Below, one piece after another: positions 9,001 to 12,000 of a stretch of DNA of 16,938 bases. The stretch's first letter is position 1. Every line of letters starts with the position of its first letter. This DNA comes from a virus (Duplodnaviria > Heunggongvirae > Uroviricota > Caudoviricetes), in IMG/VR virus record IMGVR_UViG_2728369593_000023, positions 1 through 16,938 of that record. One strand, written 5' to 3'. The position numbers were made by a program.

Positions 9001-12000
9001 GGCGCAGGGGAATCAGTTGTTCATGAACGATGTGTTCCTGAAGCGGCTGTTTGCGGCGAGTATCACGTCATCCGGCAACCCCCCGACGTTTTCCCTGACG
9101 CCGGAAGGGAAGCTGACAGCCAGGAACGCGGATATCAGCGGAGCAATTACCGCGAATACCGGCACGCTCAATAATGTCACCATTAACGAGAACTGTGTCA
9201 TCAGAGGGAAACTGTCTGCAAACCAGATTGAAGGCGACCTGGTGAAGACGGTGGGGAAAGCCTTTCCCCGGAATAACAGTTATGCCAGCGGGACGGTAAC
9301 CGTCACAGTTTACGATGACCAGGGATTCGACCGGCAGATTATCATTCCCCCGGTGCTGTTTCGCGGGACGAAACACCAGAATTTCAACAGCCCGAATCAG
9401 CAGTCGTACTGGTATTCCACCTGTAAGCTGCAGGTGCTGAAGAACGGGGTTGAGATTTTCCATGAACCGGCAACGGATGTCAGCCGGGTGTTCTCATCGG
9501 TGATAGATATGCCGGCAGGGCGGGGTCATGTCACCCTGACGTTTAATGTGTCGTCGGCCGGTGCGAACAACTGGACGCCGACAACGTACATCAGTGATTT
9601 ACTGGTTGTGGTCATGAAAAAATCCACGGCAGGGATCAGTATCAGCTGACGGTTTATTAACCCGGACGGGCACCTCAGGAGGTGCCTTTTTTATTGACTG
9701 AAAACAAAGAGGTAATCATGCGGCATTTATACGCAACGATATTATTGTTTACTACCCTGCTGGCAGGAATTGCCTTTCCTGCACAGGCTGAAAGCGGACA
9801 CGGTGCATTTTCCGTGGGATATGCTCAGGTTCACCCGGGCGGCGTACCGGCATTGTCCGGTACCGGTGCGCGTGCAGGTGATTTAAAAGGGATTAATGTG
9901 AAATACCGTTATGAGTTCACGGATCACCTGGGCGGCATTGTCGCGCTGAGTTATGCATCGGTGAAGAAAAGTGACACGATGAAGACGGGTGAAAATACCT
10001 TCCATTATGAAAGCCTGCGCGGTCGTTATGTCAGTCTGATGGCCGGCCCTGTCTGGCAGCTCAGTGAGCGGGTCAGTCTCTATGGCATGGCCGGGATGGC
10101 GTACACCCGCTGGTCTGACAGTGTTCAGGATTACCGGCGTGATGAAGTGAAACCGGGGTATGTGAAGGAGACCACCACCGCCAGTGATGGCCATACTGCG
10201 CGTCATCTGTCGCCGGCCTGGAATGCCGGGATTCAGTTCAGTCCCGTAGAGACGGTGGTTATTGACCTTGCTTATGAAGGTTCCGCCAGTGGCGACTGGC
10301 GCACTGACGGCTTCATCGTGGGTATCGGCTATAAATTCTGATTAGCCAGGTAACACAGTGTTATGACAGCCCGCCGGTTCAGGCGGGCTTTTTTGTGGGG
10401 TGAATATGGCAGTAAAGATTTCAGGTGTACTGAAAGACGGCACAGGAAAACCGGTACAAAACTGCACCATTCAACTAAAAGCCAGACGCAACAGCACCAC
10501 GGTGGTGGTGAACACGGTGGCCTCAGAAAATCCGGATGAAGCCGGGCGTTACAGCATGGACGTTGAGTACGGTCAGTACAGAGTCATTCTGTTGGTGGAA
10601 GGATTCCCGCCGTCACATGCCGGGACCATCACCGTGTATGAAGATTCTCAACCCGGTACGCTGAATGATTTTCTCGGTGCCATGACGGAGGATGACGTCC
10701 GGCCGGAGGCACTGCGCCGTTTTGAACTGATGGTGGAAGAGGTGGCGCGTCACGCTGAGGAGGCGAAGAAGAATGCCGGAGAGGCGGAGACGTCAGCGAG
10801 GAATGCCGGCATATCAGCCAGTCAGGCAGAAGAGAGCGCTGCAAATGCTGACACTTCAGCAGGGGATGCATCGGAGTCAGCCCGGCAGGCGGCAGAAAGT
10901 GCAGCCTCAGCAAAGCAGTCAGAGGATGCGTCCTCGTCCTCGGCTTCTGCGGCCGCTCAAAAAGCCAGTGAGTCATCACAAAGTGCAGCAGAAGCTGAAT
11001 TGTCAAGAAAGACGGCAGAAAGTGCAGCCGGTAATGCAGCCAGGGATGCAACGACCGCAACAGAAAAAGCCCGGGAGTCAGCAGAAAGCGCACAGTCAGC
11101 GGAACAAAGCAGGATAGCGGCGGAAGAGGCCGTAAACCGAATCCCGACCGTGGTGGGGCCTCCCGGGCCAAAGGGGGAACCGGGGCCCGCGGGTCCTCAG
11201 GGGCCGAAGGGAGATAAAGGAGAGCGTGGCGACACCGGCCCGGCAGGGGCAACCGGTGAAAGGGGGCCGGCAGGTGATGCTGGTCCGGCAGGCCCGCAGG
11301 GGCCGAAAGGTGACATGGGAGAGCGGGGAGAGACCGGTCTGACGGGAAATGCAGGTCCACAGGGTCCAAAGGGAGATACCGGTGCGGCAGGCCCGGCAGG
11401 CCCACAGGGACCGAAAGGAGAAACAGGTGCGGCTGGCCCGGTGGGGGCAACCGGACCTCAGGGACCGAAGGGCGACCCGGGGGGAGACACAAATACGGTT
11501 CCGTCTGGGGCCGGGAAACATTATTGAGACAAACAGCAATGGCTGGTTCCCGGATACAGATGGCGCACTCATCACCGGACTGACCTTTCTTGACCCCAAA
11601 GATGCCACACGGGTTCAGGGGTTTTTTCAGCATTTGCAGGTCAGGTTTGGTGACGGGCCGTGGCAGGATGTCAAGGGGCTGGATGAAGTGGGCAGTGATA
11701 CAGGCAGAACAGGAGAGTGACATGAATATACTAAAAAAACTTATGCAGCGTCTGTGTGGTTGCGGAAAGCATGATGGCCGTGAACACGTGCAGTCGCTTA
11801 CAGCACAACTGCGACTGGGGCCGGCAGACATCCTGGAGTCAGATGAGAATGGCATTATTCCGGAGCAGGACAGGGTAATCACACAGGTGGTGATACTGGA
11901 TACAGATAAAAAGCTGATACAGTGTGTGGTAAGACCGCTGCAAATCCTGCGTGCTGACGGGACGTGGGAAAATATTGGCGGGATGAAGTAACCCGACAGC

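Follow-up and report, generated by a model that had tools for sequence, protein, structure and literature searches.

The window analysed here (16,938 nucleotides, positions 1-16938 of contig AKYH01000032.1 in GCA_001605745.1, a draft E. coli assembly) carries at positions 10406-11720 a gene which, judged from its sequence, is a collagen-like side tail fibre of the EPclA type in a lambdoid, effector-carrying E. coli prophage. One extra G lies exactly at the junction between the collagen repeats and the PfC domain at the C-terminus, and throws the entire PfC out of frame. This insertion is non-programmed, a single isolated addition to a gene that is well known, and a consensus error is slightly more likely to account for it than a recent inactivating mutation. 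Both the gene and the kind of frameshift are already known.

A collagen-like side tail fibre with a displaced C-terminal domain

The tail module displays the lambda-type order T, tape measure, M, L, K, I, J and lom, then the fibre gene. This is followed by a PfC-only gene, four effector genes of the NleG family, espW, a chaperone gene of IpaB/EvcA type and the chromosome, where the prophage adjoins potB-potA-pepT-roxA-phoQP-purB. The features of the window are listed below.

6171-9649, + strand: host-specificity gene J, split into ORFs of 521 aa and 642 aa; insertions at 7706 and 7724
10368-10394, + strand: terminator-like hairpin and T-run in the interval between lom and the fibre gene (consensus scan only)
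10406-11527, + strand: 5' frame of the unrepaired side tail fibre gene, with PfN, coiled coil and collagen; 373 aa
10406-10804, + strand: PfN (PF08400), residues 1-133, virion-attaching collar domain; Pfam E=5e-70
10805-11152, + strand: Ala/Ser/Glu-rich coiled coil (PCoil of EPclA), placed between PfN and collagen
11153-11482, + strand: collagen Gly-X-Y repeats, about residues 250-359; PF01391 E=3e-18, and translation
11479-11484, + strand: run of six G (five in orthologues), site of the +1 insertion; from alignments and 30-mer counts
11485-11720, + strand: displaced 3' part in the +1 frame, 78 codons and TGA; PF06820 positions 1-64 of 64, E=1.5e-36
about 11493-11684, + strand: coding part of the PfC trimerisation/tip domain, inside the displaced 3' part
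11722-11991, + strand: free-standing PfC-only gene, 89 aa, intact; PF06820 E=1.8e-34, phrog_576 E=2e-58
12104-12679, 12970-13551 and 13619-14254: three NleG-family genes
14382-15440, - strand: espW
15515-16165, - strand: fourth NleG-family gene
16348-16938: IpaB/EvcA-family chaperone gene

The sequence at 11470-11494 reads GGGCGACCC GGGGGG AGACACAAAT on the + strand, the six G being positions 11479-11484. In the ORF list, the collagen frame starts at GTG 10400 or ATG 10406 and stops at TGA 11525-11527. ATG 10406 is the start codon of the RefSeq orthologues, and the gene is also called in the source assembly. Read from there to 11527, the gene as written codes for 373 aa, the last 14 of which are out of frame. 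In +1, an open frame extends from 11349 as far as TGA 11718-11720, and deletion of one G in silico restores a single ORF of 437 aa from ATG 10406. An earlier note on this DNA had recognized a tail fibre gene whose frame shifts within the six G at the end of the collagen repeats, the collagen frame stopping at 11525-11527 while the +1 frame goes on, and had predicted that five G would give one ORF of about 437 aa. These points were borne out by the sequence and the ORF list, by the repaired translation and by the domains and annotated orthologues (see below). The same note gave the protein a globular-looking C-terminus of 65 residues; a domain is indeed present there (PF06820, 64 residues), whereas the part downstream of the run counts 78. 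The match to PF06820 covers the whole domain, so that what lies open in +1 is a conserved domain out of its place and no chance ORF. The frame shift and the identities of the domains are demonstrated.

In the translation, about 36 uninterrupted Gly-X-Y triplets follow the coiled-coil segment. The repaired protein matches tail-fibre PHROGs (E=3e-149), and its residues 363-426 form an entire Phage_fiber_C domain (PF06820, Pfam E=5e-35). This domain joins the same polypeptide only once one G is removed, and in its present form the gene counts as a disrupted representative of the EPclA type. At the other end, residues 1-94 match the collar domain of Ur-lambda Stf (PDB 9e7m, E=6e-53), twelve copies of which wrap the tail tip in that structure (PMC12617516). 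This likeness to a domain that wraps the tail tip places the anchor of the fibre at the N-terminus and PfC at the distal end. EPclA of EHEC O157:H7 itself is a trimeric dumbbell in which PCoil was named and found to be trimeric, and in which PfC, likewise shown to be trimeric, serves for trimerisation, nucleates the collagen helix when it refolds and was proposed as the cell-binding end (Ghosh et al. 2012, PMC3368898).

The 89-aa PfC-only gene, composed of a leader and a full PfC, is present at all orthologous loci. A single base separates the fibre stop (TGA 11718-11720, +1 frame) from its ATG at 11722. This gene occupies the place of lambda tfa. Its Sp5 homologue, ORF68, was grouped with the non-essential late genes (PMC5155283). 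The 3' end of this gene recurs in a second, decayed version, interrupted by stops, at 12764-12930 between the first and second NleG genes, with about 85% identity to 11888-12061. The position of this copy between NleG genes suggests that effector cassettes were added by recombination at the ends of PfC genes. Upstream of the fibre gene, the hairpin at 10368-10394 displays an 8-bp stem with 7 G-C pairs, followed by a T-run. Because this terminator-like structure precedes the gene, the latter may need antitermination or a promoter of its own; no sigma-70-like promoter was found in 10300-12150.

Length of the G-run in finished and draft genomes

The fibre gene was aligned with four orthologues (from two finished genomes, from VT1-Sakai and from phage 2851), and the sole indel was the G-run, with six G here and five there. 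The annotation gives each of the four orthologues as one gene of 437 aa, ending one base ahead of the 89-aa gene, and the closest finished relative displays 98.6% identity across 16.6 kb. Ten more loci, adjoining an identical NleG gene, code for fibres of 389, 407, 437 or 440 aa in which PfC is always in frame. These lengths reflect whole Gly-X-Y triplets gained or lost, a real polymorphism unlike that of the G-run. The earlier note had also considered orthologues whose protein naturally ends at the collagen domain; when looked for, none was of this kind, the C-terminal domain being in frame throughout.

Tract length was then surveyed in 5,426 finished E. coli genomes with a 30-nt megablast query that seeds only on a 28-mer spanning the whole run. 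This design took the place of a 96-nt BLAST query, with which six G were inseparable from five G and a mismatch. The focal run (11479-11484) had five G at 4,116 places (687 genomes), six at 1 (strain MBT-5) and four at 8. The corresponding figures for a control run of five G located 36 nt upstream (11443-11447) were 4,642, 0 and 9. Off-length alleles at the focal run thus represent about 0.2% of copies and are not commoner than at the control tract, while the fraction with six G among finished genomes is about 0.02%; the rarity of this allele is demonstrated. Because its length counts resemble those of the control tract, the focal tract is neither a hotspot nor a switch, which speaks against the slipped-strand hotspot proposed in the earlier note. 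Among the three causes which that note had put forward, the counts likewise do not support the on/off switch and leave mutation and assembly error.

In the finished genome of MBT-5, PGAP marks both the fibre gene and J as frameshifted. A second finished genome, CP088028, has six G in a slightly different allele. Four G were recorded at both the focal and the control tract of one and the same fibre gene copy in CP031922 (FWSEC0001) and CP024618 (SMN152SH1), which has the look of homopolymer undercalling left over from long reads in assemblies labelled "complete".

A complete scan of IMG/VR for six G returned 3 contigs only, from different prophages and 95-97% identical to the fibre gene; one of them displays further homopolymer noise directly beside the run. 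Five G were seen in 117 of the matches listed and six G in 2. Among the matches listed, six G occurred in 2 of 119 draft-era IMG/VR contigs versus 1 of 4,117 finished copies (Fisher p=0.002), an enrichment in drafts that favours an artefact.

Three private lesions and their origin

In comparison with the closest finished relative, the window contains exactly three uncompensated indels, at 7706, at 7724 and in the G-run. All are one-base insertions of G or C that extend a run (C1 to C2, C2 to C3 and G5 to G6), shift the frame and fall in J or in the fibre gene, stf. The two insertions in J are 18 nt apart, and no finished genome had them at any of its J places (5,692 in all). At the first insertion, paralogues read either GACCCTG or GACACTG; the window reads GACACCTG and carries both bases of this C/A polymorphism. 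From its sequence, GACACCTG looks like a merge of both paralogue forms, as would arise from a mixed-read consensus. Another draft contig of IMG/VR displays an extra base at the same polymorphic site (GACGACTG), a hint that the consensus of drafts tends to go wrong here.

Across the assembly collection, the 373-aa product was encountered in a single contig, AKYH01000032.1 (GCA_001605745.1), and neither the truncated Stf nor the 521-aa and 642-aa J fragments occurred in any assembly besides this source contig; privacy to one assembly is demonstrated. No secondary stops or decay follow any of the three lesions. Few prophage segments are repeated as often as J and stf, of which a genome may contain up to 12 copies. 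In three other drafts with an identical tape measure protein, contigs end before J and leave no J or stf to compare. Such breaks ahead of J, in three drafts, indicate that the region is hard to assemble; in GCA_001605745.1 it is passed through by a single 87-kb contig.

Other parts of the sequence argue against an artefact. The window has 28 further homopolymers of at least 6 nt, a G7 and two G6 among them, and all have the same length as in the finished relative, so that a general homopolymer problem does not exist here. Assembly-wide homopolymer trouble was accordingly considered and set aside, nothing else in the window fitting it. In the adjacent unique chromosome, 10,000 bases aligned with 10,000 bases of finished genomes and 9 of 9 genes were intact; this equality of length and the intact genes argue that the assembly is accurate in unique sequence.

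The lesions display the pattern of an artefact, being private, located in a homopolymer or repeat context, accompanied by other private indels nearby and free of downstream decay. We infer that the extra G is, with a probability somewhat above even, an assembly or sequencing artefact in a multicopy tail-gene repeat. The draft assembler would have threaded one contig through a tail-gene repeat which occurs many times per genome, and a consensus computed over mixed repeat copies would have added one base; the true genome would then have five G and an intact 437-aa gene. The draft breaks of the region, the apparently paralogue-merged site in J and the private character of the lesions are among the reasons why an artefact is counted as the likelier cause.

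A real and recent frameshift mutation is a serious competitor, to which we grant somewhat less than an even chance. It would have struck a decaying prophage that carries effector cargo (four NleG genes and EspW), the tail genes of which were no longer under selection. J would have been struck earlier or in addition, and the side fibre gene would be a pseudogene coding at most for a stalk without tip, through an event of the kind that gave laboratory lambda its stf frameshift. J is indeed broken within the same element, and finished genomes do contain defective lambdoid prophages with a truncated J, such as VT1-Sakai; in EHEC/EPEC, genuine defects of prophage tail genes are common. Six G also occur in the finished MBT-5 ("frameshifted" in its annotation) and in CP088028, and the accuracy of the unique flanks and apparently of all other long homopolymers of the window speaks for the correctness of the contig. 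Yet, the three lesions are all private to a single draft assembly, and two independent insertions only 18 nt apart in a 3.5-kb gene, one of which falls on a paralogue polymorphism, form an unlikely natural pattern. Likewise, a decaying element would fit less well with the lack of secondary stops or decay beyond the lesions, and a mutational origin with a G6 frequency of about 0.02% in finished genomes.

Further readings are far less probable. A phase-variable contingency locus, in which slipped-strand mispairing would toggle between fibres with and without a tip, is highly unlikely. The location of the homopolymer at a domain boundary is the one point in its favour, and phase variation was rejected on the ratio of G5, G6 and G4 (4116:1:8) over the 5,426 finished genomes, which the control tract closely parallels. 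The occurrence of four G at both tracts in two genomes resembles long-read undercalling instead of switching. Moreover, contingency tracts that switch at useful rates in Neisseria, Haemophilus and Campylobacter exceed five to six G, and the present run is below that length.

Programmed +1 ribosomal frameshifting or transcriptional slippage at the six G, yielding a short and a full-length fibre, is more improbable still. The two frames do overlap, and nothing else points this way. A recoding site must be conserved in its shifted state, whereas essentially all homologues are in frame as single ORFs; as the two-frame arrangement is not conserved among them, programmed recoding was excluded. By eye, no +1 stimulator of the stop-codon or Shine-Dalgarno type was evident in 11479-11527, and in the related fibre locus of Sp5 no frameshift signal was found either (Mondal et al. 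2016, PMC5155283). Taken jointly, switch and recoding retain a very small probability. Scarcely any credence is given to an arrangement in which the six-G allele is real and heritable, the PfC-less stalk would trimerise through its coiled coil and the 89-aa PfC protein encoded 195 nt downstream would cap it in trans, the frameshift thereby swapping the tip and leaving the fibre functional.

Consequences and relation to known systems

If the insertion is real, translation would stop at 11527 and the product would keep the collar, the collagen stalk and the coiled coil, which by itself can trimerise. Missing would be PfC, the knob where the triple helix is nucleated and which probably touches the cell, and ribosomes translating the fibre gene would presumably no longer reach the stop-start junction with the 89-aa gene. 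Side fibres would not be built. With J also broken, infectious tails would probably be impossible and virions maybe not formed at all, and the cargo of NleG and EspW would then stay in the chromosome for good, barring rescue by a helper phage. Even so, the biological weight is small, namely at most another defective tail gene in an effector-carrying prophage. For annotation, such copies are labelled "frameshifted" pseudogenes by PGAP, and one-base frameshifts in multicopy lambdoid tail genes of drafts need backing from the reads before they are taken for biology.

The closest known counterpart is EPclA, which displays the same PfN-PCoil-Col-PfC order. Once repaired, the present protein has its 437 aa, and PfC occupies residues 363-426 in both. 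The position is also shared, since both belong to a lambdoid tail module and follow J and lom, ahead of the 89-aa PfC gene. EPclA genes are intact, whereas PfC is here out of frame by one G. A related arrangement is found in the short-tailed phage Sp5/933W, where the collagen-like fibre ORF67 ends with PfC and is followed by the 89-aa PfC-only ORF68, as here; it differs by another N-terminal part, extra Pf2 repeats and the absence of a frameshift (PMC5155283).

As for the lesion, its best parallel is stf of laboratory lambda (lambda PaPa, or "lambda WT"), likewise split by a single indel. There, a one-base frameshift abolishes the side fibres and separates the laboratory phage from Ur-lambda (PMC12617516). 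In lambda Stf, however, shaft and tip are of coiled-coil and gp37-like type instead of collagen and PfC, and its lesion was experimentally verified, whereas the present one is known from one draft contig. The contingency loci of Neisseria, Haemophilus and Campylobacter resemble the window in that a G-run in a gene of surface or adhesion type sets the reading frame, but the tract encountered here is short and invariant across thousands of copies.
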